Assembly: GCA_016204255.1 (NCBI GenBank) | Contig: JACQLA010000003.1 | Location: 184,088-248,087 of the forward strand | Direction: 5' to 3' | DNA length: 64,000 nt | Source: Candidatus Microgenomates bacterium | GTDB taxonomy: Bacteria > Patescibacteriota > Microgenomatia > JACQLA01 | In this document: positions 1 to 49,434 of the stretch, piece by piece | Numbering within the stretch: position 1 is the first letter of the stretch | Layout of the letters: each line of letters begins with the position of its first letter | Program-made: the position numbers and the translations under genes | Notes under the pieces: generated by a model | What the model was told of the DNA's origin: nothing | Seen by the model: only the letters and a program-made list of their open reading frames with translations | Database searches by the model: none

Positions 1-1707
<1,707 letters not shown>

Positions 1708-1737
1708 AATTCTAAAATTTAAAAGAAGGAGTATTTT

Positions 1738-3786: not shown

Positions 3787-3894
3787 GGAAATCCTAAACA
3801 AATCCAAATGACTAAAATCCAAAATAGTTTTGAGCATTTGATTCTTGAAATTATTTAGAATTTAGATATTAGAAGTTAGAAATTTATTTTTATT

Positions 3895-6426
3895 ATGAGC
3901 GATATTGGAAAAATACAAGCTGCTGAAATCACACAAGAAATGCAACGGTCCTATTTGGACTATGCAATGTCCGTTATTGTTTCTCGGGCCTTACCGGACG
4001 TTCGTGACGGTTTAAAACCCGTCCATCGCCGCATCCTTTATGCCATGCATCAGATGGGGCTTTCACACGCAGCAAAATACACCAAATCGGCTAAAATTGT
4101 CGGTGAGGTTTTAGGTAAGTATCATCCGCATGGCGATATGCCGGTTTATGATGCTTTAGTCCGGCTGGCTCAGGATTTTTCGATGCGCTACGCCTTAGTC
4201 GATGGACAGGGGAACTATGGATCGGTCGACGGCGATCCGCCGGCCGCCATGCGTTACACGGAAGCCCGCCTGACCGCGATTGCCCAGGAAATGCTTCTGG
4301 ATCTGGAAAAAGAAACCGTCGATTTTGTTCCCAATTTTGATTCAACTCTTAAAGAACCTGTCTTTTTGCCGGCCAAACTTCCGAATTTACTGCTTATGGG
4401 TTCGGAAGGTATCGCGGTTGGTATGGCCACCAAAATCCCTCCGCACAATTTAGGTGAGGTGATTGACGCCATTACCTTTATGATTGGGAAAGCCAACAAA
4501 AAAGCGGAAAACAAAATGGCGGATAAGACAGATCAACAAGCAAAAGAGAACAATGAAATTTCGGCTCAGTCATCCCTTAATTTTGATGTCTCGGTTGAAG
4601 ATCTGATGCAGTTTATAAAAGGCCCCGACTTTCCCACGGGAGCGGCAATTTATGACATCTCGGAAATTACCGCCGCCTACGCGACCGGTAAAGGAAAAAT
4701 TATTATGCGGGCCAAGGCCGAAATCGAGGATATCGGTCAGGGAAAATCAGCTATTATCGTTACGGAGTTACCCTATCAAGTCAATAAGGCTCAGCTTGTC
4801 GCCAAAATTGCAGAACTTGCCAAAGATAAAAAAGTTGAGGGTATTTCGGATTTAAGAGACGAATCAGACCGCCACGGAATCCGGGTGGTGGTTGAGTTAA
4901 AACGCGATACCCGACCGCGCACTGTTTTACAAAATCTTTTTAAACACACCGCAATGCAAACAACCTTTCCTGTCAACCTCGTGGCTTTGGTCGAAGGCAC
5001 GCCTCAAACTTTAACCTTGAAAATGGTTCTGGAAAAATATATCGATCACCGCCGCCAGGTGATTGTCAGGCGATCAGAATTTGAGCTAAAAGAGGCAAAA
5101 GCAAGGCTTCACATTCTTGAGGGATTAAAAATTGCGGTCGATCATATTGATGAGGTTATCGAAACTATTAAAAAATCCAAAGACGCCGATGAGGCCAAGG
5201 GAAAACTTATGGAGCGTTTTGGTTTGAGTGTTATTCAAGCCACGGCCATCCTAGATATGCAGCTTCGCCGCCTTGCGGCACTTGAAAGACAAAAAATTGA
5301 AGACGAGTATGAAATGGTCAAAGAGACCATCGCTTATCTTGAAGATTTATTGGCTCATCCGGAGAAAATTTTAGACTTAATAAAAAGCGAGCTTTTGAAA
5401 GTTAGGGAAAAGTATGTAGACGAGAGGAAAACTCGAGTTTATAAATCCAAACCAGGAGAATTTTCTGAAGAAGATTTAATCCCCAAAGAGAATGTGGTAA
5501 TCACTCTTAGTCAATCGGGATATATTAAGCGACAGTCCTTAAATACGTTTAATATCCAACAGCGGGGTGGCAAGGGGGTTATGGGAATGAAAACTAAAGA
5601 AGGGGATGAGATTGATCATATCCTTTCGGCGTCAACCCATGACAATATTTTGTTCTTTACTAATAAAGGTAAAGTCTATCAAATGCGGGTTTGGGACGTC
5701 CCAGAAGGAACAAGAATCTCTAAAGGACAGGCTATTGTTAATATTATAAACATCGAGCAGGGCGAAATGGTTAGCTCCATCTTAACTTATCCCTCAGACA
5801 CAAAAGGGGAGGGGAAATACATTTTTCTGACTACAGAAAAAGGAACGGTTAAGAAAACTGAACTTTCAGAATATACTAATATTCGTAGAACTGGACTTAT
5901 AACGATTAAGCTCGATAAAGATGATGAGCTTTGCTGGACGAAATTAACCTCCGGTAAAGACGACGTAATTCTGGTCACCCACGACGGTAAATCAATTAGA
6001 TTTAATGAGAACCAGGTACGACCGACTAAAAGAGATACGATGGGGGTACGCGGGATTCTCTGTGGTAAAGACGATTATGTAATCGGGATGGACATTGTTA
6101 AATCTGAAAAAGACGAACTTTTGGTTATTATGGAAAAGGGGTTAGGTAAAAAAACTACCCTTTCCGAATTTCCAAAACAAAGCAGAGGAGGCAAAGGCGT
6201 TAAAGCCTGTGAAACCACCCAAAGAACCGGTAAAGTTATCACCTCCCATATTATTGAACCCAATTGTGACTCCATTATTTTAACATCTGTTAACGGTCAG
6301 GTCGTTAAAATGCCCATAAGTTCTGTTCCCAAACTTTCCCGCGCTACCCAAGGCGTGATCCTGATGCGTTTTTCCGATCCGAAGGATTCATTGGCCGCGG
6401 CGACTTGCCTTACAAAAGAAAAGTAG
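3895..6426 (+). CDS. gyrA: DNA gyrase subunit A
   Basis: N-terminal [29 protein letters not shown] (catalytic Tyr region) and a C-terminal beta-pinwheel with repeated GxGKG motifs. 843 aa, with a short Lys/Asn-rich insertion near residue 200. Confidence 0.92.
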
Positions 6427-6564: not shown

Positions 6565-7437
6565 ATGAAATTTGATGGTCGTGCTTTAGCTCAGAGAATT
6601 TTTCACAAATTGAGCGGAAAAATTAAGAATCTTGAAATTAAGCCACACTTGGTAGTAATTTTAGTGGGGGAGAACCCTGTCTGGGAGGCTTATGTCCGGC
6701 AAAAAAAGAAAAGAGGCGAAGAGATTGGAGCCAAAGTAACCATTGATCAGCAGAAAGAATTTATAACAACCCCAGAGTTAATTAAAGTTATCGAAAAACA
6801 CAACAACGATAGGGGAGTCCACGGAATTATTATTCAGCGCCCATTGCCGCCGCAAATTGACGGACAAGCCATTGCTCTGGCTGTTGCGCCCGCAAAAGAT
6901 GTCGATGGGTTTCATCCAGACTCGCCACACCCGATGCCAGTGGCTGATGCAGTCATGAAAATTCTTAAAGAAATCCAAGGTAATAATCAAGAATTTAATA
7001 AGTGGCTAAATTCTAAAAACATTGTCGTTATCGGCAAAGGGGAAACCGCGGGTGGACCGATTATTTCGGCTTTAGAAAAATTAGGAAACACACCAAAAGT
7101 AATAGACAGTCAAACTAAAAATCCCGAACTTTTGACCAAAAATGCCGATATTTTAATCAGCTGTGTGGGTAAAGAATCTGTTGTTACCCAAGAGATGCTT
7201 AAAAAAGGCCTGCCTGCCAATAGGCAGGGAGCTATTCTCATCGGTGTCGGCCTTCACAAAGATAACCAAGGAAAACTTGCCGGCGATTATGATGAAAATG
7301 AGATAAAAGATATCGCTGCCTTTTATACGCCTGTCCCCGGGGGTGTTGGCCCCGTTAATGTGGCCTGCCTTCTTGAAAATCTTGTCGGTGCCTGCCTCGC
7401 CGAGTCAAGGCGGGCCTGCCTCAAACAACAAAAATAA
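6565..7437 (+). CDS. folD: Bifunctional methylene-THF dehydrogenase / methenyl-THF cyclohydrolase
   Basis: FolD N-terminus (KFDGRALAQRI..., VVILVGENPVWEAYVRQKKK) and C-terminal TPVPGGVGPVNVACLLENL motif. 290 aa. Confidence 0.85.
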   Translation: MKFDGRALAQRIFHKLSGKIKNLEIKPHLVVILVGENPVWEAYVRQKKKRGEEIGAKVTIDQQKEFITTPELIKVIEKHNNDRGVHGIIIQRPLPPQIDGQAIALAVAPAKDVDGFHPDSPHPMPVADAVMKILKEIQGNNQEFNKWLNSKNIVVIGKGETAGGPIISALEKLGNTPKVIDSQTKNPELLTKNADILISCVGKESVVTQEMLKKGLPANRQGAILIGVGLHKDNQGKLAGDYDENEIKDIAAFYTPVPGGVGPVNVACLLENLVGACLAESRRACLKQQK

Positions 7438-7598: not shown

Positions 7599-8150
7599 AT
7601 GTCTATTAAACAGGAAAGATTTATTAATGGTTTTGAAAAACCGCGGGAGGAATTACTTTCTCCAGGAGAGTTAGAAATTTTAAAACTCATGGCGCGCGGA
7701 TTAAGTGAAGCGGAAATTCATAAGGAATCAGGGATTCCTATTCAGCTTTTAAGACACCTTCTTTACCGCGATCCCGCCCATTACAAAAGTCCAAATGTAA
7801 AACAAAAGGGAATTCTTCCAAAACTCGGGGCTCAAAGTCGTGAACAAGCTGTCTTGAAAGCGCTTGATTTGGGTTTTTTAGATCTTGGAGAAATAGAACG
7901 AAAGTCTGGCTTTAATCTGGAAAGATACGCAGAGTTAGACGATAAAGAAACACAATTATTGAATGTGCTTGATGATTCCTCTCATTCTGGACGAAATCAG
8001 ATTCTCGCTGAAAGATTAGGCGTGGTAAGAGATACCGTTAAAGATCAATTGAGCAGTATCTACAGAAAATTAGAAGTTTCAAATAAGATGCAAGTCGCCC
8101 TTTTTCATCGAATTGTCAAATCAAAACCACCACTTCAGTTGCCAAATTAA
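7599..8150 (+). CDS. LuxR/GerE-type transcription regulator with two tandem HTH_LuxR domains (paralogue 1 of 3)
   Basis: N-terminal LSPGELEILKLMARGLSEAEI and C-terminal ETQLLNVLDDSSHSGRNQILAERLGVVRDTVKDQLSSIYRKLEV each match the LuxR HTH pattern. No receiver or ligand domain. Confidence 0.6.
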   Translation: MSIKQERFINGFEKPREELLSPGELEILKLMARGLSEAEIHKESGIPIQLLRHLLYRDPAHYKSPNVKQKGILPKLGAQSREQAVLKALDLGFLDLGEIERKSGFNLERYAELDDKETQLLNVLDDSSHSGRNQILAERLGVVRDTVKDQLSSIYRKLEVSNKMQVALFHRIVKSKPPLQLPN

Positions 8151-8222: not shown

Positions 8223-8759
8223 ATGACCATAGAAAGATACATACCGACTACTGCAGTTGAAGGCGAACAAAGCAGCCTTTTAACCTCCCGACAAATCGAG
8301 ATCCTTAAATTAGTAACCTATGGTTTGACTTATAAGGAAATCGCTGCGAGACTATTAATTTCAGATCAGACCGTCAAAAACCATTTAACTCAACGTTCAG
8401 AATTTGGATCGATCCCTAAAGGAATCTTTGATCGACTTAATGTACAAACTAGAGAACAGGCTGTTTTAAAAGGACTCGAATTAGGTTATTTAGATTTAAA
8501 CGATATTGTCGAAAATTCCGGTTTACAACTCAACAAAATTGTGTTACTCACCCCCAGAGAAATTGATGTTATACACAAGCTTTCTGATCCCGAATGTGTA
8601 GGGAATAATAAAGTCACTGCTAAATCGCTAGGAATTTCTCCCGCCACATTGCATTATCATATGGAAAATATCTGCAAAAAATTAGAGGTCAAAAACCGAA
8701 TTCAGGCGATGGTTTTTCACCTGGCAGTTAAAAGAGAATTGGGGGTAGTAAATGAGTAG
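8223..8759 (+). CDS. LuxR/GerE-type double-HTH regulator (paralogue 2 of 3)
   Basis: SRQIEILKLVTYGLTYKEIAARLLISDQTVKNHL plus a second C-terminal HTH. Shares the TREQAVLKGLELGYLDL linker motif with its neighbours. Confidence 0.6.
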   Translation: MTIERYIPTTAVEGEQSSLLTSRQIEILKLVTYGLTYKEIAARLLISDQTVKNHLTQRSEFGSIPKGIFDRLNVQTREQAVLKGLELGYLDLNDIVENSGLQLNKIVLLTPREIDVIHKLSDPECVGNNKVTAKSLGISPATLHYHMENICKKLEVKNRIQAMVFHLAVKRELGVVNE

Positions 8760-9288
8760 AGAAAGAGTTATAGATTATCCCCGCCAGAGCGTGTTAAGCC
8801 CGCAGAAAAGAGAAATTCTTGAGCGTGTAGCCATTGGTCAAACCAATGCTGAAATCGCCAGGGCATTTGGTAATGCGCTCGCAACAGTTGTAAGTCATCT
8901 GCGCGGGGAAAATAACTCAATTCAGCATCGATTAGGAGCACGAAGGCAAGGCCAGGCAATCCTTAAGGCGTTTGAAATGGGGGAGCTGGATTTAATAACA
9001 ATAGTTGAAAAATGTAACTTTGACTTTGACCGCTATAAAAAACTGATGCCAAGAGAAATTCAAGTTTTAGACAAACTTACCAATCCTTCTCGTCGAATGG
9101 GAAACAAAGATATCGCAGATGTAATGCATATCGGCCGCGATGCCGTCCGACTTTCTTTATACAGCATCGGGAAAAAATTAGGAGTCAGTAAGAGGGAAGA
9201 GATGATAGTTTTTCATCTGGCGGCTACAACTTATCCTTTTGAAAAATCGGTAAGATACAATGGGGTAGTTGAAGAATCGGGTTTTTAG
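8752..9288 (+). CDS. LuxR/GerE-type double-HTH regulator (paralogue 3 of 3)
   Basis: Same architecture. Overlaps paralogue 2 by 8 nt (translational coupling). The stop abuts the convergent purD stop. Confidence 0.55.
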   Translation: MSRERVIDYPRQSVLSPQKREILERVAIGQTNAEIARAFGNALATVVSHLRGENNSIQHRLGARRQGQAILKAFEMGELDLITIVEKCNFDFDRYKKLMPREIQVLDKLTNPSRRMGNKDIADVMHIGRDAVRLSLYSIGKKLGVSKREEMIVFHLAATTYPFEKSVRYNGVVEESGF

Positions 9289-10620
9289 TTACCGGGATAC
9301 TCCTCGCTGGCCGATGTCGGTACGATAATGCATGGGGACGAAGAAAATTTTCCCTTCGGGAACCTCTCCCTTCCGCATTTCTACCGTGGTAGCAATAGAC
9401 CGATAAGCTCGATTGGCAGCGATTTTTGGAGTTGAGCCAAGACCGGCAACAAGGGCCACCCGTCCGCCTGAAGTTAGGATTTTTCCATCTTCATTTCTGG
9501 TTCCCGCTTGAAAAACGACAACATCTCTTTTTTTGGCAACTTCTTCAAGCCCAAAAATTTCTTTACCCGTTTCGTACTCTCCCGGATAACCGCTGGATGT
9601 TAAAACCACACCAACACAATACTCATTCGACCATCGTAAAGGAGTCTTATCTAATCTTCCATCAACCAAAGCATCAAAAGCTTGGATAAGGGGAGTTTGG
9701 AGTAGGGGCAAGGCTCCTTGAGTTTCCGGGTCCCCGCCGCGGCAGTTTATTTCCAAAACTTTGGGACCATCTTTTGTCATCATCAAACCGGCATAGATAA
9801 ATCCTTTGTAGGGGCCCGAGTTTGCTCCCGCTTTTTGAACAATTGGTCTTAGAATCTGTTCAGTCAAAGGCCTTAGATCTTCCGGACTAATCACTTCCCA
9901 GAAGGGAGCAACAACACCCATTCCGCCGGTATTTGGACCCCTATCACCATCAGAAACCTGTTTATAATCCTCCATGGGAATTAGCGGCTGGATTGTCTCT
10001 CCGTCGGTTAAAGCAATTAAGGAAACTTCCCTGCCTTCAAGTTTTTCTTCGATTACCACGCGGTCGCCGGCCGAACCAAATTCTCTGTCAACCATCAATC
10101 TTTTCAAGGAATTTTGAGCTTCTTCAAGGGTTTGGCAAACGAAAACACCTTTACCTCCGCATAAACCATCAGCTTTTATCACCACCCCATCCCGCTCCCA
10201 AGCGGCTAAAAAATCTCGAGCATTCTGATAAATACTAAAGGTAGCAAAATCCGGCCCGGGAATACCCCAGCTGGCTAAAGCGTGTCGGGCATCTGCTTTA
10301 CTTGTTTCAAGTCTTGCAGCTGATTGTGTAGGCCCGACAATTCTTTGACCTCTATCGTTAAATTCATTGACGATTCCTTTTGCCAAAGGTTCTTCCGGCC
10401 CGACCACTGTCAGATAAATATTATTTTCCCGTGCATAATCGGCTAACTTTCGCGGATCATCTATTCCAATCCCAGCGTTTGTGCCGCTTTGGGAAAGATC
10501 CGCATTGCCGGGTTCGGTGTAGTGGATTTTCACAGTTGGATCTTTTCCCAAAGACCAAGCATAAGCACTTTCCCGAGCGCCATTCCCAACTATCAAAATT
10601 TTTTTAAGAGTTTCCGGCAT
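9289..10620 (-). CDS. purD: Phosphoribosylamine--glycine ligase (GAR synthetase)
   Basis: 443-aa ATP-grasp protein. N-terminal KILIVGNGARESAYAWSL and the overall PurD layout. Last gene of the minus-strand pur operon. Confidence 0.85.
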   Translation of the reverse strand: MPETLKKILIVGNGARESAYAWSLGKDPTVKIHYTEPGNADLSQSGTNAGIGIDDPRKLADYARENNIYLTVVGPEEPLAKGIVNEFNDRGQRIVGPTQSAARLETSKADARHALASWGIPGPDFATFSIYQNARDFLAAWERDGVVIKADGLCGGKGVFVCQTLEEAQNSLKRLMVDREFGSAGDRVVIEEKLEGREVSLIALTDGETIQPLIPMEDYKQVSDGDRGPNTGGMGVVAPFWEVISPEDLRPLTEQILRPIVQKAGANSGPYKGFIYAGLMMTKDGPKVLEINCRGGDPETQGALPLLQTPLIQAFDALVDGRLDKTPLRWSNEYCVGVVLTSSGYPGEYETGKEIFGLEEVAKKRDVVVFQAGTRNEDGKILTSGGRVALVAGLGSTPKIAANRAYRSIATTVEMRKGEVPEGKIFFVPMHYRTDIGQRGVSR

Positions 10621-10626
10621 AAATTA

Positions 10627-11661
10627 TTATCCCAATTTCGCGGCTTCTTCGCGAACAATCCCACGGACTCGCCTGTGAACTTCGATTATAGGAGAAAGGT
10701 CTTCAACTCCTGCGATTAAATTATAATTCCCTCTATTGGAATCCGGTTCCCACCATGCGCCTCCTTCCTTTTGGGGCCTCATAGTACGATTTTCTTGTGA
10801 TGAGACAAATCTATGTACTTCTGTTAAACCGCCTTCCGAGTGTTTTATGCAAAGGGGTAGTAAATCACGGAAATCAGTGGTTGCCAAAGCCACGTTACCT
10901 TCATTTAAAGCGTATTCGTTGGCGTTAAAAGCAACCGCAGTTCCGCCTTCATTTCTTACCGCCCCCAGCATTACCATATCGGTAATACTGTCTCCAACAA
11001 CTACAATATCTCCCAAACCCACTTTATTTTCTTGGCATATAGCATGCAAAGCTTCCACTTTCCGATTCCCACCATTAACTCTGACTTCATTTAATGGTTC
11101 AAGCCCGCTTTCTGGTAAAATTTCCCAGAAAAATTCATCTAACATCTCCTTGATTTCTTTATCTTTTCCTTCAATCGGGTAAAGTTCCCGAAGCATTCTT
11201 GCCTGTGTTCGCCCAACAAAAGAGAGTAGAGTGGGACTAAATCTTTGACCCAGCTCGTCTAAAGCAAAACGAGTGCAGTGGACATGGCTTTCCTCAACGC
11301 CTACCCGCTGGGCGATATTAAGGGCATGTGGTCTATAACTTGTAGAGTTGATGTAAACCTCCCAATCACTACTTCTCAACCAAGTAATGGCCTCTGGAGC
11401 ACCATTAACTAACATTGCGGTGTCAGAAACGCTTTTTATATCCTTCTCTTTTATTCCGTTATAAATCAGGTAGGGAGCGATTAAGGCTAGAGTGTCGCCT
11501 GGTTCATAATTCTCCCTTCCTTCTAATGTTAAAAGATCGTCATAGCGTGAAATAGCTTCAAAAATTTTGCCCCCATCTGGAATAAGCTTCATGAGTTCAT
11601 AGGCATTATCTTGCGGTGAAAGAGGACCTTCTAAATCGAAAACACCAATCTTTCTTTTCAT
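10627..11661 (-). CDS. HAD-superfamily (phosphoserine-phosphatase-like, C1-capped) hydrolase of unknown role, embedded in the pur operon
   Basis: Motif I VFDLEGPL (DxE variant), a conserved Lys in GGNRKVEAL, and motif IV VVVGDSITDMVML. 344 aa with a roughly 70-aa C-terminal extension. 6-nt and 12-nt gaps to purD and purEC. Confidence 0.5.
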   Translation of the reverse strand: MKRKIGVFDLEGPLSPQDNAYELMKLIPDGGKIFEAISRYDDLLTLEGRENYEPGDTLALIAPYLIYNGIKEKDIKSVSDTAMLVNGAPEAITWLRSSDWEVYINSTSYRPHALNIAQRVGVEESHVHCTRFALDELGQRFSPTLLSFVGRTQARMLRELYPIEGKDKEIKEMLDEFFWEILPESGLEPLNEVRVNGGNRKVEALHAICQENKVGLGDIVVVGDSITDMVMLGAVRNEGGTAVAFNANEYALNEGNVALATTDFRDLLPLCIKHSEGGLTEVHRFVSSQENRTMRPQKEGGAWWEPDSNRGNYNLIAGVEDLSPIIEVHRRVRGIVREEAAKLG

Positions 11662-11673
11662 TTTATTTCCTTT

Positions 11674-13125
11674 CTAAGCAGTTTTATTAAAATAATCTAA
11701 AATTGATTGCTTTATAGCTGCGGGAGAGCTGTCAATTCTTGACAAATCCTGTCCGGTTAATCGCTGGTAGGGTTCGGTGTATAAAGCTGCCAGCTTCCCA
11801 GTGATTTCTTCGGGAACGTGCGGAATGCGGCCCTCGCCGGAAAACCCATGATCCACAAGCCAAAGTCGTAAAAATTCCTTATCCAGACTTTCCGGTTCCT
11901 CTCCGCGTTTTAGTTTTTCTTTATAACTTTCCAATCGCCAAAGTCTTGAAGAATCGGGAGTAAAAATTTCATCAATTAAAACCAGTTTGCCGTTTTTATC
12001 TTTTCCAAATTCAAATTTGGTGTCCACCAAAATCAGCCCGGCTTTTTTATAAATTCTGGCCGCTCTTTCAAATAAGGCTTGAGCAGCTTCTTCCATTTCC
12101 CGGTATGTCTTGCCAAAAAGTTTTGTGGCCTGGCTGGGCGAAATAATTTTGTCATGCTGACCCCCTTCGGCTTTGGTTGTCGGAGTAAAAACAAGTTTTG
12201 GCAGTTTTTGATTTTTTAAAAGTCCTTTGGGTAATTTTAGCCAATCATAAAGACCGGTTTTTTCGCTATAATTTTTCCATAAAGATGTCGAGGTTGAACC
12301 GGTAATATAGGCCCGGACAATCATTTCAATCGGGACCGATTTGCATTCTGTGCAAACTGTAACGTTGGGGTGGGGGATAGCAATCATGTGATTGGGAATA
12401 ATATCTTTAGTTTTTTCAAACCAGAATTTAGACAAAGTGTTTAAAAGGCGGCCTTTGCCGGGAGTTAAGCAAACGATGCGATCAAAAGCCGACTGCCGAT
12501 CGGTAGTAATCATCAATCGTTTGCCATCTTTCAAAACCCAATTATCCCGAACCTTACCCTGAATCTTCGGGCCGAAAGAACGGGGCAAATTAACTGTTTC
12601 CAAAGTTTGAAGAGTAGGGGAGTGATAGGAATTATTTTTTTCACTCAGGACGATATCCGCCTGAACAATTTTTTCGCGAAAACTTTTTTGATAATTTTCA
12701 AATTTTTCCGCAAGTTCCAAATTATCTAAAGCAAAAATTTTAACCGCCGCCAAAGCCGCCGTCTCCGGCTCTAAAACTACCGTAGCTGCAATCCCGGAAG
12801 GCATCCGCAACGAAGAAAAAATATCCGCCCCACCGTATTTTTCGCCATAAGGGGGACAGGAAATCACCGGATTTTTAGTCTGGGCGTCTATAAAACCGCC
12901 CAAAGCATTTGATCGCCCGGCCACAGCAATATAAATAATTTTTTTATTCTGACCATCATAATTTTTGATTAGTTCCAAAAGATGTGCGGGTGTTTTATGC
13001 GCCGAACCGATACGCAAAACAGATTCAACCGAGAATTTATCTAAAACTTGTTTTATTTTTTCAGCCTGCTCCTGATCGGTAGGGGAGCCCATCACAATTA
13101 CTACCAGTTCTTCTCGACTATTCAT
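11674..13125 (-). CDS. Fusion protein: N5-CAIR mutase / AIR carboxylase (PurE) N-terminal domain + SAICAR synthetase (PurC) C-terminal domain
   Basis: Residues 1-~160 match PurE (VVIVMGSPTD..., SAHKTP, GGADIFSSLRMPSGIAATVV). Residues ~190-483 match PurC (KVRDNWVL..ITTDRQSAFDRI, LVDTKFEFG). 4-nt overlap with purB. Confidence 0.8.
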   Translation of the reverse strand: MNSREELVVIVMGSPTDQEQAEKIKQVLDKFSVESVLRIGSAHKTPAHLLELIKNYDGQNKKIIYIAVAGRSNALGGFIDAQTKNPVISCPPYGEKYGGADIFSSLRMPSGIAATVVLEPETAALAAVKIFALDNLELAEKFENYQKSFREKIVQADIVLSEKNNSYHSPTLQTLETVNLPRSFGPKIQGKVRDNWVLKDGKRLMITTDRQSAFDRIVCLTPGKGRLLNTLSKFWFEKTKDIIPNHMIAIPHPNVTVCTECKSVPIEMIVRAYITGSTSTSLWKNYSEKTGLYDWLKLPKGLLKNQKLPKLVFTPTTKAEGGQHDKIISPSQATKLFGKTYREMEEAAQALFERAARIYKKAGLILVDTKFEFGKDKNGKLVLIDEIFTPDSSRLWRLESYKEKLKRGEEPESLDKEFLRLWLVDHGFSGEGRIPHVPEEITGKLAALYTEPYQRLTGQDLSRIDSSPAAIKQSILDYFNKTA

Positions 13126-14543
13126 AATTCCTCCTTTGCAGATTTTATTTCATTAATAGCATTTTCCGTGATTTTAACCGCCAAACCAATATAATTTTGG
13201 GGGGTCAGTTTTTGCAAAACTTTTTTATCGGCAGGGGAGACAGGTAAGCTCTTAATTAATTTCAACCATTCCGTCTTGCCGATATGGCGTCCGCGGGTTT
13301 TAGACAGGATTAAGGAATAGGGATCTTCGACACCTCGCCGACGCATCAAAGTCTGCGCCGCTTCGGAAAGAACTGTCCAGTCTTCATCTAAATCTTTACT
13401 AATCTTTCCGCTATTTGTTTTTAATCTTAAGAGACCATTTAATGTATTTTTGTAAGCTAAAAGAGACCATCCTAAAGGCACACCCATATCCCTCACGATT
13501 GTGCTGTCGGAAAGATCACGCTGAAGCCGTGAGGTCGCCAGCTCCCGGCAAAAATATTCGAGTAATGCGGTCGCTTTACCCAAATTACCCTCGCTATTTT
13601 CAAAACGCCAGGGATTTATTTTTTGCGGCATCGCCGAAGACCCAACCTCTCCTTTTTTATTTTCCTGAACAAACCAGTTGTCGCTCACATAACGCCAGAT
13701 GTCCTGATCAAAATCTATAAGTATCCCGTTAATTCGCTGATAATTTTGAAAAAAGGTAATCATATCCTCATAAGGATTAATTTGAGTTGTGACCAAATTT
13801 GGCTCAAAACCAAAAGAGCGGATAAATTTTTGAGCAAAGTTAATCCAATCGATTTCCGGATAGGTGATTTGCAAAGCATTTAAATTTCCCACCGCCCCGG
13901 TGAGTTTTCCAAAAAGCTGGCGGCCAGCCAAAGTTTTTACTTCCCTGTTTAATCGGCTGGCAAAAACCGCAAATTCCTTTCCCAGAGTTGTCGGCACCGC
14001 CCGCTGGCCGTGAGTCCGGGCCATCATAGGAGTATTTTTATCCCTTTCCGCCCGATTAATTAGTTCTTCGATTAGGCGATCCAAAGCGGGGATTAGAACC
14101 TGATCGGTTGCCCTTTTCAAAGCAAGCCGGTAAGCCAAATTATTAACATCTTCTGAGGTTAAACCGATATGAATTTTTTCAATCAGATCTTTCAGACTTC
14201 CTGTTAGCCGCAGCCGGAAGGATTTTTCCATAGCCTTAACGTCGTGATCGGTTTCAGTCTCGATCTTTTTGACTTTTTCTCCATCCTGAAGTGTCATACT
14301 TTGGCCGAAAGATTCAAGCTTTTGTCTTTCCGCCGCCGTCAACGGCCGAATAATTCCTTCATCTGATAGAGCAATCAAATATTTGGCTTCGACCTCAATT
14401 CTTAAGCGGATGAGATTGTATTCACAGACAAAAGGAGCAAGATCGACAACATCTTTTCGATTGCGGCCATCCAAAATGGAAATAGCAGTTAATTCCTGTA
14501 GAGGTAAAGTTTTTAAGTGAGTACCTTTGGTTTTTCCCGGCAT
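13122..14543 (-). CDS. purB: Adenylosuccinate lyase
   Basis: 473 aa with fumarate-lyase-family layout and the PurB-type N-terminus. First gene of the purB-purEC-HAD-purD operon, all tightly coupled. Confidence 0.8.
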   Translation of the reverse strand: MPGKTKGTHLKTLPLQELTAISILDGRNRKDVVDLAPFVCEYNLIRLRIEVEAKYLIALSDEGIIRPLTAAERQKLESFGQSMTLQDGEKVKKIETETDHDVKAMEKSFRLRLTGSLKDLIEKIHIGLTSEDVNNLAYRLALKRATDQVLIPALDRLIEELINRAERDKNTPMMARTHGQRAVPTTLGKEFAVFASRLNREVKTLAGRQLFGKLTGAVGNLNALQITYPEIDWINFAQKFIRSFGFEPNLVTTQINPYEDMITFFQNYQRINGILIDFDQDIWRYVSDNWFVQENKKGEVGSSAMPQKINPWRFENSEGNLGKATALLEYFCRELATSRLQRDLSDSTIVRDMGVPLGWSLLAYKNTLNGLLRLKTNSGKISKDLDEDWTVLSEAAQTLMRRRGVEDPYSLILSKTRGRHIGKTEWLKLIKSLPVSPADKKVLQKLTPQNYIGLAVKITENAINEIKSAKEEL

Positions 14544-14635
14544 AACTTGTTACGCGGATCTTGAGCTCTAAAATACTTTTTTACTTGGCAAAAGTCAAGT
14601 GAAAATTTACTTTACAATATGCTATAATTGGCTAG

Positions 14636-14902
14636 ATGGAAAAGAATACCTCTCAAACGACTGAAGTGGTTGTAAATGCTGATTTGGTTGTCGGCAGTAC
14701 GTATTCACAGTTCGTTGGCGTTACGGTAACAGACGTTGATATTACATTGGAATTTGTTTTTATAAGCCCACGAGAAAAAACAAAAGGACAAGTTGTTTCT
14801 AGAGTCACGTTACCACGTCCCTCGGGAGAAGATCTTGCTCGTACAATATTAAACACAATTAAATTACACGAAGAGAAGAAGAAAGGAAAAAAACATGAGT
14901 AA
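14636..14902 (+). CDS. Small conserved hypothetical protein (DUF3467-like pattern)
   Basis: 88 aa. The central YSQFVGVTVTDVDITLEFVFISPRE..VVSRVTLP segment resembles the DUF3467 family. It ends in a Lys-rich tail. Confidence 0.3.
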   Translation: MEKNTSQTTEVVVNADLVVGSTYSQFVGVTVTDVDITLEFVFISPREKTKGQVVSRVTLPRPSGEDLARTILNTIKLHEEKKKGKKHE

Positions 14903-15146
14903 TTCTTATACACTTCCAATTCCAAATACAAGTATTATAAGATCGACCTTTACGGAAGTAAATTATATGAAATTAATTAAAAATATTGTTTCAGAATTTA
15001 CAACCTTTGGGGCAGATAGTATTTTCAACGAATTAATTACAAATAAAACCTTTATTGCTGAGGCAAGGGAGGCGAGAAAACAAATTAAAAAACATCCCTC
15101 GAGCTTTACGAACTTTACTGAAAAATTCTCATCTCTAATTGATTAA
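14895..15146 (+). CDS. Small hypothetical protein, possible antitoxin partner of the downstream RelE-like gene
   Basis: 83 aa. Overlaps both neighbours (8 nt upstream, 1 nt downstream). No recognisable fold. Confidence 0.25.
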   Translation: MSNSYTLPIPNTSIIRSTFTEVNYMKLIKNIVSEFTTFGADSIFNELITNKTFIAEAREARKQIKKHPSSFTNFTEKFSSLID

Positions 15147-15451
15147 TGTATGCCATCTTCGCGAAAAATAAAAATATCGAAAGAGACTACGAACAATTAC
15201 TGCTTTCGTTAGATAAAATAGAGCAACGAAAGTTAATGACGACTCTTACTAAATATCCAAAGTCTACACCAAGAAATAAAAGAATTGAAACAATTGGTAG
15301 AGTTGAAAAGAAGGGTAAATTTTGGCAATATTATGCGCCGGATGGAAACAGAGTTATATACGACGTTAGAGACCGACCAAAACAAGTAATAGTTCAGTTT
15401 GCTGGCGACCACGAAGATACCGGAATTTGGCTCAGACGTAATGCCCAATGA
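15146..15451 (+). CDS. RelE/ParE-superfamily toxin-like protein
   Basis: 101 aa. C-terminal GNRVIYDVRDRPKQVIVQFAGDHED matches the RelE/ParE beta-sheet consensus (YRxIYxV..xxVxVLxxGHRxx). The start codon overlaps the stop of the upstream small ORF. Confidence 0.5.
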   Translation: MYAIFAKNKNIERDYEQLLLSLDKIEQRKLMTTLTKYPKSTPRNKRIETIGRVEKKGKFWQYYAPDGNRVIYDVRDRPKQVIVQFAGDHEDTGIWLRRNAQ

Positions 15452-15455
15452 ATTT

Positions 15456-16637
15456 CTAAGTAATAATTTTGGGGAGCTGATTTGTTTTTATTGCCTCTTT
15501 GATTTCCATGGCGACGCGTTCGCCCATACTAACCGGTCTTCCATATAAATAGGAGCTATAGGGAGTGGCCGCGATTCCTGGGGAGCCCGGCATGCGCAGG
15601 GCCACGTCAAAAACCGCGATTTCTTTTTTGGGTGGACCGGGCAAGATAACCGCTTGCAAGCCAAAAGGGCCGATAATTCCCGGCCCAAACATCTCTTTTG
15701 TCGCCTCGACAAACCGTTCTCCCATCTCGTAAGCCATCTCTAAAAATGATTCCAAAACAGTCACAGCAATGTGACCCGCCTCCTCATAGGTCGGGCGGAT
15801 TTTGGCTAAAATTTGCGCCTGTTGTGTCTGAGGTAAACGCAAGAGTCCGTCTAAATTTGTTTGTCTTCTTGTGTCAGTTCCCAAAAGCTCTAAGCGGCCG
15901 AGAGTAGGGGAGTAGAAAAAGTTGAAATTGACCTGGGCACCAAGTAGAAATTCTTCAATAATTACATTTTTTAGCCCGCTTTCGGTAATTTTTCCGATTT
16001 TAATTAATTTTTCTGATTCGGTTAAAAATTCTTTATAGGAATTTGCCAGAAAAAAGGCCCGCTCAAATGATCGTTCTTTTTCATTAACGCTGACTTTAAC
16101 AATTACCATCCGATCAATATCTTTGGGATTTTTGAAAATCTTCGGATACTTAATCCCGCCTTTTTCCAAAAGATCATACTGGTTGGGTTTTACCGATCTT
16201 TCTTCGGCCCGAAACAAAAAGCGGTTGCCAAAGACAGGGATTTTAAATTTTTTTTCAATTCCGTCATAATCCCCGAGATAAACTTCAAAGGAGCGGTGGG
16301 GGATAAAGATGCAGTTTTTGGCCCGCAGTTTTTTTTGAACATCCGCAGTTAATAAATCTTTTATTTTTTCAACATAAAAAATTTCATCCACGCAACCGAC
16401 CGAAGGTCGTCCTGAGCTTGCCTGCGGTGAGGACATTCGGCTGAGCTCAGTCGAAGCCCTTGTCGAATCTGCCGAAGGACCTCTTTTAAAATATTGATCA
16501 TAAACTTTTCCCCGGCCTTTTTCCGCGATCACCAGCGTCTTAAACCCCATTTTTTTGGCGCCAAAACAAACTTCCAAGGCACTGTGCCGGGCAAAAACAG
16601 CAATAATGGGATTTTTATAATCTTTAACTGAGGTCAT
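15456..16637 (-). CDS. Archaeal-type FAICAR synthetase (formate-dependent, ATP-grasp) PurP, paralogue B with a low-complexity insertion
   Basis: PurP N-terminus (IAVFARHSALEVCFGAKKMGF) and conserved blocks (PHRSFEVYLG, NRFLFRAEER, GPFGLQ, MSMGERVAMEIK). A roughly 40-aa Ser/Pro-rich insertion lies near residue 55. Confidence 0.75.
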   Translation of the reverse strand: MTSVKDYKNPIIAVFARHSALEVCFGAKKMGFKTLVIAEKGRGKVYDQYFKRGPSADSTRASTELSRMSSPQASSGRPSVGCVDEIFYVEKIKDLLTADVQKKLRAKNCIFIPHRSFEVYLGDYDGIEKKFKIPVFGNRFLFRAEERSVKPNQYDLLEKGGIKYPKIFKNPKDIDRMVIVKVSVNEKERSFERAFFLANSYKEFLTESEKLIKIGKITESGLKNVIIEEFLLGAQVNFNFFYSPTLGRLELLGTDTRRQTNLDGLLRLPQTQQAQILAKIRPTYEEAGHIAVTVLESFLEMAYEMGERFVEATKEMFGPGIIGPFGLQAVILPGPPKKEIAVFDVALRMPGSPGIAATPYSSYLYGRPVSMGERVAMEIKEAIKTNQLPKIIT

Positions 16638-16810
16638 TTTATCTTAAGTATTTCCTTGTCATTTCGAGCACATTCGTTACACTCAGCGTAAACTCCGCGA
16701 GAAATCTAGCGAACCCCGATTTTATCGGGGGAAGCGTAAAATGCGATACTTCTTGCCTAGATTTCTCACCCCCGATTTAATCGGGGGATTCGAAATGACA
16801 TTCAGCGTTA
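16638..16810. repeat. Nested imperfect palindrome of about 170 nt containing two copies of a 19-nt hairpin (cccccgatt(a/t)aaatcggggg), between the two purP genes
   Basis: Outer arms tgtcatttcga/tcgaaatgaca and inner arms gagaaatctag/ctagatttctc are reverse complements. One arm carries a 31-nt asymmetric insertion. Confidence 0.6.
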
Positions 16811-17815
16811 TTAATCCAAAACCAGATTTAATTTATTTTGGCCAATCGCGTTTTTTATCTCCCGGGCAATTCTTCGGCCGGTTGACATCGGCTCATCATA
16901 TAAAAATTGCGTGTAAGGCGATCCTTCGATAAAAAGATTAGTCCCCGCAACGATCCGACAGGAAATTTCAATTACAAAAAACTTTTGATCGGGAGTGATG
17001 ATCGTTTCCAAACAAAATGGGCCAAAGAGTCCTTTTTTCGGTATAATCTTTTGGGATGTTTTAACAACTTTCTCACCCATGGCAAAAGCTTCCGGTAAAA
17101 GCGATTCGCGCAGGGTCAAGGGACTGTTCCCCACAACAACGTATGATGGTTGAATGCCAAGACCTTCCTGGTTTTGGGAAGGGATACGGCCTAAGGAATC
17201 AACATTGGTTTCATACCGACGGTCAATGCTTAAAATTTCAAGTTTTCCAGTTAAGGGCGAGTAAAAGTAATGAATAAAAAGTGGTACCCCGATAATATAT
17301 TCCTGGATAACATAATCCCGAACGGTGAAATGGATAATTTTTTCGGCAAATTCCTTTTTATTGCGGGCAAAAAAGTAACCCCGGCCGCCGGCTGCGCCAT
17401 TGGATTTGACCATTACCGGTGCGTTAATTTGAGCAGGTAGATCAAATTGTCGCGGGATGTTTATACCCGCCTGCATTAACCAATCTCTTTGCCTTTTTCG
17501 ATCAGCTTCCCAATCTAAAACATCTTTGTTACCAAAATAAGAGGTTTTCATCTTTTTATTTTCATCCAAACCTAAATAAGCCACAAAAGAACCATGAGGA
17601 ATAATAATTACTCTTTTTTCCAGAAGTTTTTTTTCGATTTTGAAAAAATCTACATATTTTTTGATCGTTATCAATTCATCAATAAAGGGAAAGTTTTTAT
17701 AAAAAGATGAAAATTCCGGCGTGGTGATGGCAATTGTCGCAAAGCCCTCATCTTTGGCCCCCTTAAGAATTTGCAGACAGGAATGTGAGGCCAGGGTCGC
17801 AATTGTGTATTTCAT
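16811..17815 (-). CDS. purP: Archaeal-type FAICAR synthetase PurP, paralogue A
   Basis: 334 aa. Collinear with archaeal PurP throughout (TLASHSCLQILKGAKDEGF, IIPHGSFVAYLG, GGRGYF, FIHYFYSPL, GPFCLE, STGRRIAREIK). Confidence 0.8.
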   Translation of the reverse strand: MKYTIATLASHSCLQILKGAKDEGFATIAITTPEFSSFYKNFPFIDELITIKKYVDFFKIEKKLLEKRVIIIPHGSFVAYLGLDENKKMKTSYFGNKDVLDWEADRKRQRDWLMQAGINIPRQFDLPAQINAPVMVKSNGAAGGRGYFFARNKKEFAEKIIHFTVRDYVIQEYIIGVPLFIHYFYSPLTGKLEILSIDRRYETNVDSLGRIPSQNQEGLGIQPSYVVVGNSPLTLRESLLPEAFAMGEKVVKTSQKIIPKKGLFGPFCLETIITPDQKFFVIEISCRIVAGTNLFIEGSPYTQFLYDEPMSTGRRIAREIKNAIGQNKLNLVLD

Positions 17816-17911: not shown

Positions 17912-19003
17912 ATGACAACCACCAAAGAAGGTTATAACCCTAATTCAGCAGGAAGTAGTTCTTCCCTGGCAGGCTTGACGCTCCATCCGGAAATTCCTGA
18001 GAAACCCTCAGATGATTTTTTAAATGGATGGCGGCGTTTTAAGACTAAACCGCCGGAAATCGATCTTTCCAAAGGCAATTTTTGGCAAACCGAGCTTGGC
18101 GCAGCAGCTAAAGAATTCGTTTTTGCGCAAACAGATCGTCCCAAAACAACTGTCCAGGTTGCCAAAAAATTACGGTTAAAAGGGGGTAAAGAATCATCTC
18201 ATTTTATAATGAAGCTCGTTCGAAGCGGAATAATTGTAGGCGCGGAAAAAGCCGGAGGCAGAGGATATCGACTCCCTAAACCTCAAATGATTATTTGCGC
18301 CCTTGTTCTCCGTGACTTAGAAGATGGCCTTTCACTTCCCGAAATCGTAAGTCATCTTTCTCAAAAACTGGAGGGGACCGATTTAAAGCAATTTGTGGGC
18401 GAGGCAAAGGAAAATTATGATGATTTAAAACCTGGGGTGGTTTTTTTCACCGAAACTTCTCCCTGGTATCAAAAAACCTTTGAGTGCATGACAGTAACTG
18501 ATTCCCAAGGGACATTAGGCGGTGAGGATAAGTCATTAATCTCCCAAAATGTTCAACCAGACACGGAAGAAATTGATGAGGAAGACTTACCCGAGTTTAA
18601 ACCAAAAAGCCCATTAGATAAGATCATAGAAATTGATGAGGAACAATTGGCAGAGTTGGAAAAAATTGATCCGGAACGACTTAAAAAGATTTACGGTCGC
18701 GCGCCTGACAACTCTCTAGAAACGTTTAACCTTCATCGCCTAAATGCGATTGCGAGCGAAAAACTACCATTCTCTGTGGTGAAAACATTGCTATTCATTC
18801 ATCTTGTTCGAAATAGACATCTCAGGCCTCTAGATGAGAAGTTAGATGATTTAACTTTCGCCGATTTTCGGCGTACGGCCCAAACTTGTCTTAGAATTTT
18901 TGACGACTATCCTCATCTCCAAAATCTTGCTCAGCTTTATAAATATCTCAGGCAAGCGGTTGAAGAAAATCCAACTCGATTTATGGAGCCCTCAAGATAT
19001 TAA
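17912..19003 (+). CDS. Hypothetical protein with a possible winged-helix segment and an acidic repeat region
   Basis: 363 aa. TTVQVAKKLRLKGGKESSHFIMKLVRSGIIVGAEKAGGRGYRL is wHTH-like. An acidic EEIDEEDLPEF / EIDEEQLAELEKID repeat follows. Confidence 0.3.
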   Translation: MTTTKEGYNPNSAGSSSSLAGLTLHPEIPEKPSDDFLNGWRRFKTKPPEIDLSKGNFWQTELGAAAKEFVFAQTDRPKTTVQVAKKLRLKGGKESSHFIMKLVRSGIIVGAEKAGGRGYRLPKPQMIICALVLRDLEDGLSLPEIVSHLSQKLEGTDLKQFVGEAKENYDDLKPGVVFFTETSPWYQKTFECMTVTDSQGTLGGEDKSLISQNVQPDTEEIDEEDLPEFKPKSPLDKIIEIDEEQLAELEKIDPERLKKIYGRAPDNSLETFNLHRLNAIASEKLPFSVVKTLLFIHLVRNRHLRPLDEKLDDLTFADFRRTAQTCLRIFDDYPHLQNLAQLYKYLRQAVEENPTRFMEPSRY

Positions 19004-19009
19004 AAACGT

Positions 19010-19747
19010 ATGCGACAAGAGAGAACAATTGGCAATATTCATGAACACCACCCCAGGAAGAATCCATATGGGGAATATTTAACTGGGGATGAAATCAAAT
19101 TTAGTCTTCAAACCCTACAATCAGATGGCTCTTTAAGGTCTTGTGATCAAAGAATAGTTATTCGAGATGTTCGCGGCGGAGGGTTTTTTGGGCGGGTTAT
19201 AATTCCTGAAGATGGAGGATACGTTATAAAAACTTCCTGCCCGGATTCATGGCATCATTTATGGCGGGAAGTTAACTGGGATTTCAAACCGTTTCCAGCT
19301 CGAGTCTTTGAAATTGACGCCCAACTCGAACATCTTTCCACAAGACTTATTCATCAAGTTTTACCAAGATTATCCGGCGGAAAATTCCGCAGTCCTGATT
19401 CATTTGGCTACACGGACTTGCCCAACGGATTTGCTCAAGTCGTAGAAAAAATGGAGGGAAGAGGGCCACGATTTGATTTGCCTAAAAACGAATTTTTGGA
19501 ATTTCGCCAGGCACAGGAAGAACTCACCGATTTGGCTTTGCGTCTAGGTCTTGAACAAGCAGGTCAGATACACCCGGAAAATCCTTTTGGAATGGCCAAT
19601 CTTTGGAAAGAAAAAGACGGCCATGGTTTTATTTGGCTCGATACCATTCCAGCTATTCCCCACAATGGCTGGATTAAACCTTTTTTCCACTTTAAATTTC
19701 ATAAAAAAAATGCGGCAGTGGTTTGCTCAGAAAAAAACTACTTTTAA
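19010..19747 (+). CDS. ABC1/UbiB-like atypical protein-kinase-fold protein, N-terminal part (probable frameshifted gene)
   Basis: Gly-rich VRGGGFFGRVII..YVIKT, and a catalytic-loop-like QIHPENP...GFIWLDT that matches the ABC1 HxDxHPGN...DFG arrangement. The ORF ends 37 nt after an A8 run. Confidence 0.4.
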   Translation: MRQERTIGNIHEHHPRKNPYGEYLTGDEIKFSLQTLQSDGSLRSCDQRIVIRDVRGGGFFGRVIIPEDGGYVIKTSCPDSWHHLWREVNWDFKPFPARVFEIDAQLEHLSTRLIHQVLPRLSGGKFRSPDSFGYTDLPNGFAQVVEKMEGRGPRFDLPKNEFLEFRQAQEELTDLALRLGLEQAGQIHPENPFGMANLWKEKDGHGFIWLDTIPAIPHNGWIKPFFHFKFHKKNAAVVCSEKNYF

Positions 19748-20627
19748 TCGTATCCATACAGGATACTTCCTGAATGAAATAGTCCAAAATAAACATCTTT
19801 TCCCGCCTGATCTTTACCAAGAATTAAAACAAGAGCTTTCCCTTTATGAAAAACTTTGGGAGAAAAGAGAAGAAATACATAAAAACGACAAACCGGATAT
19901 CGGTCCGGCGGCAAGAGCCCTGGGTGAAACCGCCAAAGATCTGCTTACTGAAAGAGCCATTTTTAAACTAATCGCCGATCCTGAATATAGGGCAAATAAG
20001 TTGGCTGATTTTATCTCTATCCTGACCGATCCTAAATATCGTGCTTTTTTACTCCAGAAAAATATTATTTTAAGAGGAGTAGAAAGAGCCCGGCAAGAAG
20101 GAATAATTGCTGACGATGAATGGAGTGCTGTCTGGGAAGCGATGGAAATTGCTCGGGCCCCTGAGAGAAAAACCCGTTTCGATCCGAAGGCAACTTTAAC
20201 AAGCTTGCAAATTTATTACCTTGTCTCAGGTCAAATCCTAAACATTCTTGAAGGTTCTGCATATATAAAAGCAGTCCTCGACGAAGATAAATTTAAGGCT
20301 GTAGCTTTAGGGATATTTGTTGGTCGAATACTACCATCTATCATAAGGCCGGTCTCAACCTTGATAACCGGAGCCGTTAGTAAAAACGATCTCAGAGTTG
20401 CTACAGTCTTCTCGGCTTTTCCCGGCGGAACCTGGGCCGCTATACCCATTCAATTCGGTGCCATGGCAGCAGGTAGAAATCGGTTAGTTTTACATTATGC
20501 TATTCGAGACATTATTGCTGGATTATCAAAGTTAAGTCCATCAGGCGGTTGGGGAACAGAATTAGAAGCTAAACTTTATGAAAAAGTTGGAGCACGTTTG
20601 GAAAAAATTGCCCAGCCAAAAGATTAA
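19710..20627 (+). CDS. Helical C-terminal part of the same UbiB-like gene, or a separate overlapping gene (ATG at 19710 directly after the A8 run)
   Basis: Frame 0 is open from 19551. The in-frame ATG at 19710 is inside the 3' end of the previous ORF. Combined length of about 540 aa equals a typical UbiB/ABC1 protein. Confidence 0.4.
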   Translation: MRQWFAQKKTTFNRIHTGYFLNEIVQNKHLFPPDLYQELKQELSLYEKLWEKREEIHKNDKPDIGPAARALGETAKDLLTERAIFKLIADPEYRANKLADFISILTDPKYRAFLLQKNIILRGVERARQEGIIADDEWSAVWEAMEIARAPERKTRFDPKATLTSLQIYYLVSGQILNILEGSAYIKAVLDEDKFKAVALGIFVGRILPSIIRPVSTLITGAVSKNDLRVATVFSAFPGGTWAAIPIQFGAMAAGRNRLVLHYAIRDIIAGLSKLSPSGGWGTELEAKLYEKVGARLEKIAQPKD

Positions 20628-43782: not shown

Positions 43783-43801
43783 TTTTCGAGGTTTAAATTA
43801 G

Positions 43802-49349: not shown

Positions 49350-49393
49350 AGTCTTGACATTGGTCACCTGAAGTATTAAAATAACCTATAATT

Positions 49394-49417
49394 CTCCAGT
49401 TCCGACTGGAGTTTTTT
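49394..49417 (+). terminator. Intrinsic terminator between the two sigma-factor genes
   Basis: ctccagt-tccg-actggag followed by T6. Preceded by a promoter-like TTGACA-17-TAAAAT at 49354..49382. Confidence 0.5.
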
Positions 49418-49434
49418 GTTTTTAATTTATACTT

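Follow-up and report, generated by a model that had tools for sequence, protein, structure and literature searches.

A window of 64,000 nucleotides from Candidatus Microgenomates bacterium (assembly GCA_016204255.1, contig JACQLA010000003.1, positions 184,088 to 248,087 of the forward strand), which is the whole stretch of DNA that we analyzed, carries two genes of the PurP family among bacterial-type genes of purine biosynthesis. The two products, PurP-1 (334 amino acids [aa]; 16811-17815, minus strand) and PurP-2 (393 aa; 15456-16637, minus strand), are, judged by their sequences, a pair of the PurP II (cluster Ib) and PurP III (cluster II) types. The pair is a lineage-wide trait in Microgenomates, where it lies within otherwise bacterial-type purine operons. 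We consider it fairly probable that the pair was acquired from archaea and works inside a bacterial-type purine pathway, with PurP-1 formylating 5-aminoimidazole-4-carboxamide ribonucleotide (AICAR) to 5-formaminoimidazole-4-carboxamide ribonucleotide (FAICAR) and PurP-2 serving as its partner.

Both ATP-grasp proteins belong to the PurP family, as an original prediction made from this sequence had proposed, and not to PurK or PurT. The Pfam domains DUF1246 and DUF1297 were found in both of them, with scores of 140.6 and 229.2 bits in PurP-1 and of 124.7 and 207.8 bits in PurP-2 (cutoffs, 25 and 23.8 bits), and both could be aligned over their full lengths to the solved PurPs 2R84, 2R7K, and 2PBZ. 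PurK and PurT were rejected as identities, the purK model TIGR01161 giving PurP-1 a negligible 19.3 bits against a cutoff of 318.4 and PurT giving no match. PurP-1 matched PF1517 of Pyrococcus furiosus (PDB 2R84) end to end (E = 1.5e-101, 50% identity) and MJ0136 of M. jannaschii at 44% identity (E = 1e-87), and PurP-2 matched MJ0136 at 36% identity (E = 8e-65). The two window proteins are ancient paralogues that share 32% identity. NCBI names PurP-1 a "formate--phosphoribosylaminoimidazolecarboxamide ligase" and PurP-2 only a "DUF1297 domain-containing protein."

To assign the subtypes, we aligned both proteins with PurP-family representatives clustered at 50% identity, using MJ0136 numbering. 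According to Brown et al. 2011 (PMC3261824), His27 and Arg314 are kept in all PurPs, Asn258 and a (K/R)GG(K/R)G loop are the mark of cluster Ia/Ib, and His258 and a longer, glycine-poor loop are the mark of cluster II, the archaeal members of which have a loop 2 residues longer than that of cluster I. A cluster II gene is also characterized by a basic loop and by its presence as a single copy in genomes that have a cluster Ib gene; in the window, it adjoins PurP-1. PurP-1 has H27, S94, N258, S266, and R314 together with the loop GAAGGRG, and it shows no deviation from the Asn258 clade at the 41 positions with a conservation of 90% or more. The first basic residue of its P-loop, A-G-G-R-G, is Ala, likewise in all copies from the candidate phyla radiation (CPR). 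PurP-2 has H27, S94, S266, and R314 as well, with a His at position 258 (H289 of the protein) and the glycine-free loop EKERSFERAFF in place of the Asn and the Gly-rich loop of cluster Ia/Ib, and it follows the His258-clade consensus where the two clades differ (G93R, E230Q, N258H, E310D, and G318S). Compared with the cluster I loop here, that of PurP-2 has 4 additional residues and those of the other CPR copies have 2. These published signature residues place PurP-1 in cluster Ib (PurP II) and PurP-2 in cluster II (PurP III), bearing out the suggestion that the two copies mirror an archaeal paralogue pair.

The residues expected to contact the substrates are also kept. Both proteins have the formyl contacts His27 and Arg314 and the AICAR-phosphate contacts Ser94 and Ser266, and the same four residues occur in all eight related pairs described below, with S266A as the single exception. 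PurP-1 keeps every residue that contacts the formyl group, the AICAR carboxamide, or the AICAR phosphate in the MJ0136 structure. The Ser/Pro-rich insertion that had been noted in PurP-2 is real, spanning aa 50-82 (RGPSADSTRASTELSRMSSPQASSGRPSVGC; 16392-16490, minus strand; also rich in Thr and Arg), and has no counterpart in solved PurP structures. However, it is not an archaeal-like feature, as the loop is hypervariable: in the 120 closest homologues, which are from CPR, its extra length ranges from 0 to 36 residues, similarly low in complexity. The structural model of PurP-2 has a mean predicted local distance difference test score (pLDDT) of 89, but residues 54-77 fall below 50, and this hypervariable loop is probably disordered.

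Database searches returned 7596 homologues for PurP-1 and 5664 for PurP-2. With 100% self-matches excluded, identities within the top 120 were 65-83% and 58-77%, respectively, and the named entries in each top-120 list were all Microgenomates, Daviesbacteria, Curtissbacteria, or another "Candidatus" taxon. Both PurP types were present, always amid pur genes, in all eight related loci (L001, L003, and L011 to L016), so that here and in the window the PurP-2 type is always encoded together with the PurP-1 type. In a neighbor-joining tree, the His258 clade (cluster II) split off with 98.5% bootstrap support and included PurP-2, and the CPR type-1 and type-2 clades were each monophyletic (94% and 96.5%). 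The few named family representatives around the CPR clades were all archaeal (Nitrosocosmicus, Diapherotrites, Heimdallarchaeota, and Asgard), and an ancestor of this lineage may have acquired the pair from archaea. Among archaea, PurP II and PurP III occur together in 61 operational taxonomic units (OTUs) (Cruz et al. 2019; PMC6486802).

Two of the eight loci, L013 (CAZWMJ010000002.1) and L015 (CAZSWA010000004.1), come from records titled "uncultured Gammaproteobacteria" yet carry Microgenomates-type PurP operons, with PurP-1 orthologues 73% and 67% identical to that of the window; these labels are probably wrong. At a further locus, L020 (3846-5944), tandem PurP-like genes lie beside glycosyltransferase genes and not pur genes. 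One copy, P0362, has Asn for His27 and Ser for Arg314; placed with the CPR type-1 clade at 84% bootstrap, this copy is probably a neofunctionalized offshoot.

The eight related loci differ in whether purH accompanies the pair. Three operons are without it: L001 (purF-purN-purD-x-HAD-purL-purQ-guaA-PurPII-PurPIII-purB-purE-purC-purM), L003 (PurPII-purA-PurPIII-purB-purE-purC-guaA-Ham1), and L012 (PurPII-purA-PurPIII-NUDIX-purB-purE-purC-purF). That of L001 encodes every step from purF to purB (purF, purN, purD, purL, purQ, purM, purE, purC, and purB) plus guaA, except purH, and L012 is the closest relative whose gene context was seen (80% identity in PurP-1). On the other hand, a canonical bifunctional purH adjoins the PurP genes within one operon in five related species, namely L011, L013, and L014 (PurPII-PurH-purA-PurPIII-HAD-purB-purE-purC-purF[-purN/purD]), L015 (purL-purQ-PurPII-PurH-PurPIII-purB...purM), and L016 (purN-purD-purL-HAD-purQ-guaA ... 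PurPII-PurPIII-PurH-purB). In L011, L015, and L016, PurH is a bifunctional protein of approximately 500 aa that scores 515-561 with NF002049 (cutoff, 402). Hence, in this lineage the pair cannot be viewed simply as a stand-in for purH, and the PurP signature residues are intact in both types with or without purH in the operon. The genome scan that supplied four of these loci was biased towards purH, its query being a chimera of PurP-1 and PurH with six exact peptide patterns; among the loci reached without this bias (the window, L001, L003, L011, and L012), purH was in the operon in one of five.

Within the window itself, tblastn with CPR queries for purH, purN, purA, purF, purL, purM, purQ, and guaA gave no match at E <= 1e-3, so the statement of the original prediction that the window has no purH holds. 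No pur genes were seen within approximately 8 to 9 kb past each window end either (about 17 kb of flanks in total). However, the absence of purH from the window says little, because this genome has its pur genes scattered (purF, purL, purM, purA, and guaA are likewise missing from the window) and only about 81 kb of it is visible. The window showed no IMP (inosine monophosphate) cyclohydrolase, whether of the PurO or the PurH2 type, and no candidate for this step was common to the purH-less operons, the unknown genes of L001, L003, and the window not being homologous. The 383-aa genes of L001 and L003, the 363-aa gene of the window that adjoins PurP-1, and the HAD (haloacid dehalogenase)-like gene described below were rejected as a common unknown cyclohydrolase gene, being mutually dissimilar.

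Folate enzymes are encoded in the window and in related operons. A gene for FolD (methylene-tetrahydrofolate [THF] dehydrogenase/methenyl-THF cyclohydrolase; 6565-7437, plus strand) sits 1.9 kb from purD; its product has the Pfam domains THF_DHG_CYH and THF_DHG_CYH_C and reaches 208 bits with the NCBIfam FolD models, under their cutoffs. The gene is a sign that one-carbon units are carried on folate here. In relatives, a homologue of PurN, the folate-dependent type of glycinamide ribonucleotide (GAR) formyltransferase, is encoded in the same operons as the pair. The usual rationale for PurP, based on a lack of folate, is therefore not applicable here.

PurP-1 is a putative AICAR formyltransferase that would convert formate, AICAR, and ATP to FAICAR. 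In E. coli, a folate-dependent enzyme (PurN) and a formate- and ATP-dependent one (PurT) coexist at one formylation step, and by analogy with PurT beside PurN at the GAR step, the PurP-1 route would be a folate-independent supply of the purine C2. PurP-2, with its remodelled nucleotide loop and its change of the carboxamide contact Asn258 to His, would act together with PurP-1, as a partner subunit or at a second step. For the archaeal proteins, Cruz et al. (PMC6486802) have speculated on heterohexamers, and Brown et al. (PMC3261824) on a cyclohydrolase role. The only PurP with demonstrated activity is MJ0136 (PurP I), a proven formate- and ATP-dependent FAICAR synthetase. The original prediction had called both window proteins FAICAR synthetases; the family holds for both, but the activity label extends to them what has been demonstrated for PurP I. 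Overall, as the pair in relatives often lies beside a normal bacterial purH, it may add to the bacterial route.

Several observations weigh against this proposal. FAICAR synthetase activity was absent in vitro from both PurP II and PurP III of P. furiosus, of which the inactive PurP II is 50% identical to PurP-1, and both window proteins stay below the NCBIfam PurP equivalog cutoffs (398.6 at best against 580 for PurP-1, and 259 at best against 556 for PurP-2). The five relatives with purH beside the PurP genes would not obviously need a separate AICAR formyltransferase, FolD in the window and the PurN homologues in relatives suggest that 10-formyl-THF is available, and no formate source (fhs or pfl) was seen in the window or its flanks. 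As for the archaeal donor, the deeper nodes of the neighbor-joining tree, which has few named tips, have 19-38% support.

A different reading, less probable in our view but a serious one, is that this bacterium is without purH and completes purine synthesis in the archaeal style, with the pair carrying out the final two steps by itself or aided by an unknown cyclohydrolase, in line with the archaeal-type late steps suggested in the original prediction. The pair is present, and purH, purO, and a PurN homologue are all missing from the window and its flanks; the operons of L001, L003, and L012 likewise do without purH, L012 being the closest relative and L001 leaving the PurP pair at the purH position. 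Against such a replacement stand the small visible part of a genome whose pur genes are scattered, the five related species in which purH adjoins the PurP genes, and the failure of the purH-less operons to share any IMP cyclohydrolase candidate. If the genome did prove to be without purH, the FAICAR-to-IMP cyclohydrolase would be unassigned, as in Crenarchaeota, where this enzyme was still described as unidentified in 2019 (PMC6797443). We regard as a long shot the more radical version in which the PurP II/III pair alone closes the purine ring in purH-less Microgenomates, perhaps this one among them, the PurP II type formylating AICAR and the PurP III type being either the "crenarchaeal" IMP cyclohydrolase or an obligatory activating partner. 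PurP III as an obligatory activator of PurP II would explain the negative P. furiosus assays, and the mesophilic bacterial proteins, with their natural purH-plus and purH-minus operon variants, would allow a direct test of this version in E. coli.

It is also conceivable, though we think it unlikely, that the PurP II/III pair has no part in AICAR formylation and carries out another ATP-grasp ligation in or near purine metabolism, with purH, located somewhere in each genome, doing the canonical steps. This would fit the inactivity of the P. furiosus proteins and the occurrence of the pair with a complete PurH, both in one operon of five CPR species and in 10 archaeal OTUs (PMC6486802). The signature residues kept alongside purH indicate that no decay of the pair as a redundant copy is under way, and the L020 tandem amid glycosyltransferases, with its altered formyl-binding residues, indicates that the fold can be recruited elsewhere. 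However, PurP-1 keeps all formyl, AICAR carboxamide, and AICAR phosphate contacts of MJ0136, PF1517 (the P. furiosus PurP II) binds ATP and AICAR, and extracts of S. solfataricus, which has PurP II/III only, incorporate formate during the conversion of ZMP (AICA ribonucleotide) to IMP. Redundant formyl donors, moreover, have an established precedent in PurN and PurT. An artefact, in which archaeal DNA was mis-binned or mis-assembled into a bacterial contig or PurK or PurT was misidentified, we hold to be extremely improbable. The description of PurP as an archaeal signature speaks for it, but the PurK score is far below its cutoff, the same arrangement recurs amid bacterial-type pur genes in the eight other loci, and the PurP genes lie mid-window, with a GC content resembling that of the neighboring and housekeeping genes. 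The genome is bacterial, as predicted: the housekeeping genes of the window (encoding GyrA, GyrB, DnaB, SSB, RuvC, EF-P, Lgt, a release factor, YebC, and a LytR-type protein, besides four sigma-70-family proteins) are bacterial, and NCBI has proteins with 100% identity to PurP-1, PurP-2, and the HAD-like protein from a "Candidatus Microgenomates bacterium," all encoded on a 310-kb contig. Mis-assembly is ruled out, since the identical locus was found on a 209-kb contig of a second assembly (GCA_964420235.1) and on Logan contigs from independent sequencing runs.

Returning to the window, the ORF (open reading frame) map, Pfam, and NCBIfam placed purB, purEC, the HAD-like gene, purD, and the two PurP genes as originally predicted, all on the minus strand. 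The first four form one unit, with purB (adenylosuccinate lyase of the ASL_C/PRK09285 type; 13122-14543; NF006764, 530 bits against a cutoff of 446) as the first gene behind a promoter-like site at 14598-14570 on the minus strand. It is followed by the purE-purC fusion (11674-13125), the HAD-like gene (10627-11661), and purD (phosphoribosylamine-glycine ligase; 9289-10620; TIGR00877, 430.5 bits against a cutoff of 288; GARS_N/A/C domains). The unit had been described as tightly overlapping, which is true of purB and purEC, sharing 4 nucleotides, but not of the other two junctions, which are gaps of 12 and 6 nucleotides. The PurP genes, spaced 173 bp from each other, lie upstream of this unit and outside it, with 912 bp separating PurP-2 from purB. 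No ZTP, purine, or THF riboswitches were found near folD, the pur genes, and the PurP genes, even at E <= 5.

The 912-bp interval holds a cassette of three small ORFs on the plus strand (14636-15451), preceded by a promoter-like site of its own at 14599-14628. The first ORF encodes an 88-aa DUF3467 protein (E = 2.3e-6), and the other two (83 and 101 aa) are orphans; Pfam searches of the small ORFs at relaxed thresholds found nothing further. The GC content of the cassette is 0.29-0.38, compared with 0.40-0.47 in the neighboring genes. None of the eight related operons has the cassette: there, either purB comes immediately after PurP-2, or a single gene (for a hydrolase or PurH) stands between them. 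For this reason, the cassette looks like a later insertion that split the PurP genes from purB.

The purE-purC fusion is a 483-aa ORF with the Pfam domains AIRC (aa 8-157; 7.6e-38) and SAICAR_synt (aa 189-462; 9e-64), and gene calling in the second assembly gave the same gene of 483 aa. PurE is at the N terminus, an order reversed relative to that of animal PAICS, and purE and purC are separate in all eight relatives. The PurE domain carries the motif GSAHKTP, which we take to be class II-like (direct aminoimidazole ribonucleotide carboxylase), and no purK was seen in any locus examined. The purB product is only 25-29% identical to the ADSL_C-type PurB of most related operons (L001 and L011 to L016 compared) but 60% identical to that of L003, suggesting that purB may have been displaced within the lineage.

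The HAD-like gene encodes a 344-aa HAD-IB hydrolase resembling EhaR and AF1437, with weak Pfam HAD matches and the JGI family label "energy-converting hydrogenase A subunit R." Its best non-self homologues are approximately 50% identical, the named ones coming from Chloroflexota/Dehalococcoidia, Altiarchaeota, and Thermoplasmata, and it is not a typical CPR gene. All invariant motifs of the family are kept (FDLEGP, STSY, GGxRK, GDSITD, and a C-terminal EAAKLG). Its model (pLDDT 89.6) has the uncharacterized AF1437 (PDB 1Y8A) as the best Foldseek match (E = 4e-18, TM 0.83/0.91), followed by phosphoserine phosphatases as the next fold matches. In all four non-CPR genomes examined, which are Dehalococcoidia-like and Thermoplasmata genomes, the EhaR gene lies between genes for a PurN-like formyltransferase (272-291 aa) and a PfkB ribokinase-like kinase (L005, 7186-9965; L006, 7093-9901; L007, 6876-10686; L019, 1953-4773). 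This triad recalls the end of the Methanothermobacter eha operon, EhaR-S-T, the final two genes of which formerly carried the annotations formyltransferase and ribokinase (PMC3087415). Here, by contrast, the HAD-like gene stands alone between purEC and purD without formyltransferase and kinase, and its arrival together with these partners was rejected, as neither has homologues in the window.

Nonorthologous phosphatases and nucleotide hydrolases recur in CPR purine operons, comprising HAD_2, Cof-type HAD-IIB, NUDIX, and Ham1 ITPase proteins in the related loci and the EhaR-like protein in the window. Those of the related loci are encoded in L001 (4074-4709), L016 (5031-5663), L011 (14863-15609), L013, L014, L012 (13395-13916), and L003 (17816-18367), and it looks as if one functional slot in these operons is filled by different enzymes.

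Further arrangements in the window were also noted. Downstream of folD, three tandem genes for small GerE/LuxR-type helix-turn-helix proteins (7599-8150, 8223-8759, and 8752-9288, plus strand) converge on the end of purD and abut it. Divergent from PurP-1, three genes (363, 245, and 358/305 aa; 17912-20627, plus strand) gave no Pfam match even at E <= 1, and the independent Logan contigs keep them together with PurP-1. Between gyrB and gyrA (22-6426, plus strand) lies an inserted gene for a membrane H+-translocating pyrophosphatase (1738-3786). The four sigma-70-family genes are accompanied by two YchF-type GTPase paralogues (42913-44413, 48132-50601, 55972-56919, and 60828-61973).

The proteins themselves are already in databases, NCBI and JGI records naming these CPR proteins FAICAR synthetase or DUF1297 proteins. 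Our search of the accessible literature found no paper describing PurP in CPR/Patescibacteria or any other bacterium; PurP is cited as an archaeal signature enzyme, and in a survey of 1,403 complete genomes it was restricted to archaea (Cruz et al. 2019; PMC6486802). The novelty thus lies in a known family pair having bacterial members and not in a new kind of system, and the finding by itself shows no new pathway. It adds one further case of archaeal-type metabolic genes in CPR bacteria and bears on two archaeal questions, namely the roles of PurP II and III and the FAICAR-cyclizing enzyme in Crenarchaeota, Thaumarchaeota, and Pyrococcus. The natural purH-plus and purH-minus operon variants of Microgenomates are a comparative data set for these questions, and the Microgenomates PurPs may offer mesophilic proteins that are easier to test by complementing E. 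coli purH mutants.

Among known systems, PF1517 of P. furiosus (PurP II/cluster Ib; PDB 2R84-2R87) is like PurP-1 in its length of 334 aa, its 50% identity, its P-loop type, and the residues H27, S94, N258, S266, and R314, and its gene, too, is accompanied by one for a cluster II paralogue in the vicinity of pur genes. It differs in its host, a hyperthermophilic archaeon as opposed to a mesophile-like CPR bacterium, and in its loop, GAKGGKG, where PurP-1 has GAAGGRG with Ala for the first basic residue. Pyrococcus has neither purH nor a PurN homologue, whereas relatives of the present bacterium encode both in the operon with the PurP genes. The archaeal cluster II/PurP III proteins, such as PF0421, share with PurP-2 the His in place of Asn258, the longer glycine-free loop, and the cluster Ib gene alongside, but PurP-2 bears an extra disordered Ser/Pro-rich insertion of 29-33 residues. 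MJ0136 of M. jannaschii (PurP I; PDB 2R7K) has the same fold and substrate-contact residues as the window proteins, being 44% identical to PurP-1 and 36% to PurP-2; however, it is a single-copy PurP working with PurO in a folate-free organism, whereas here there are two paralogues of other groups, no PurO seen in the window, and folate enzymes. Finally, the coexistence of PurH and the PurP pair in L011 and L013 to L016 would follow, at the AICAR step, the same logic as PurN and PurT at the GAR step of E. coli, although the enzymes and the step differ.

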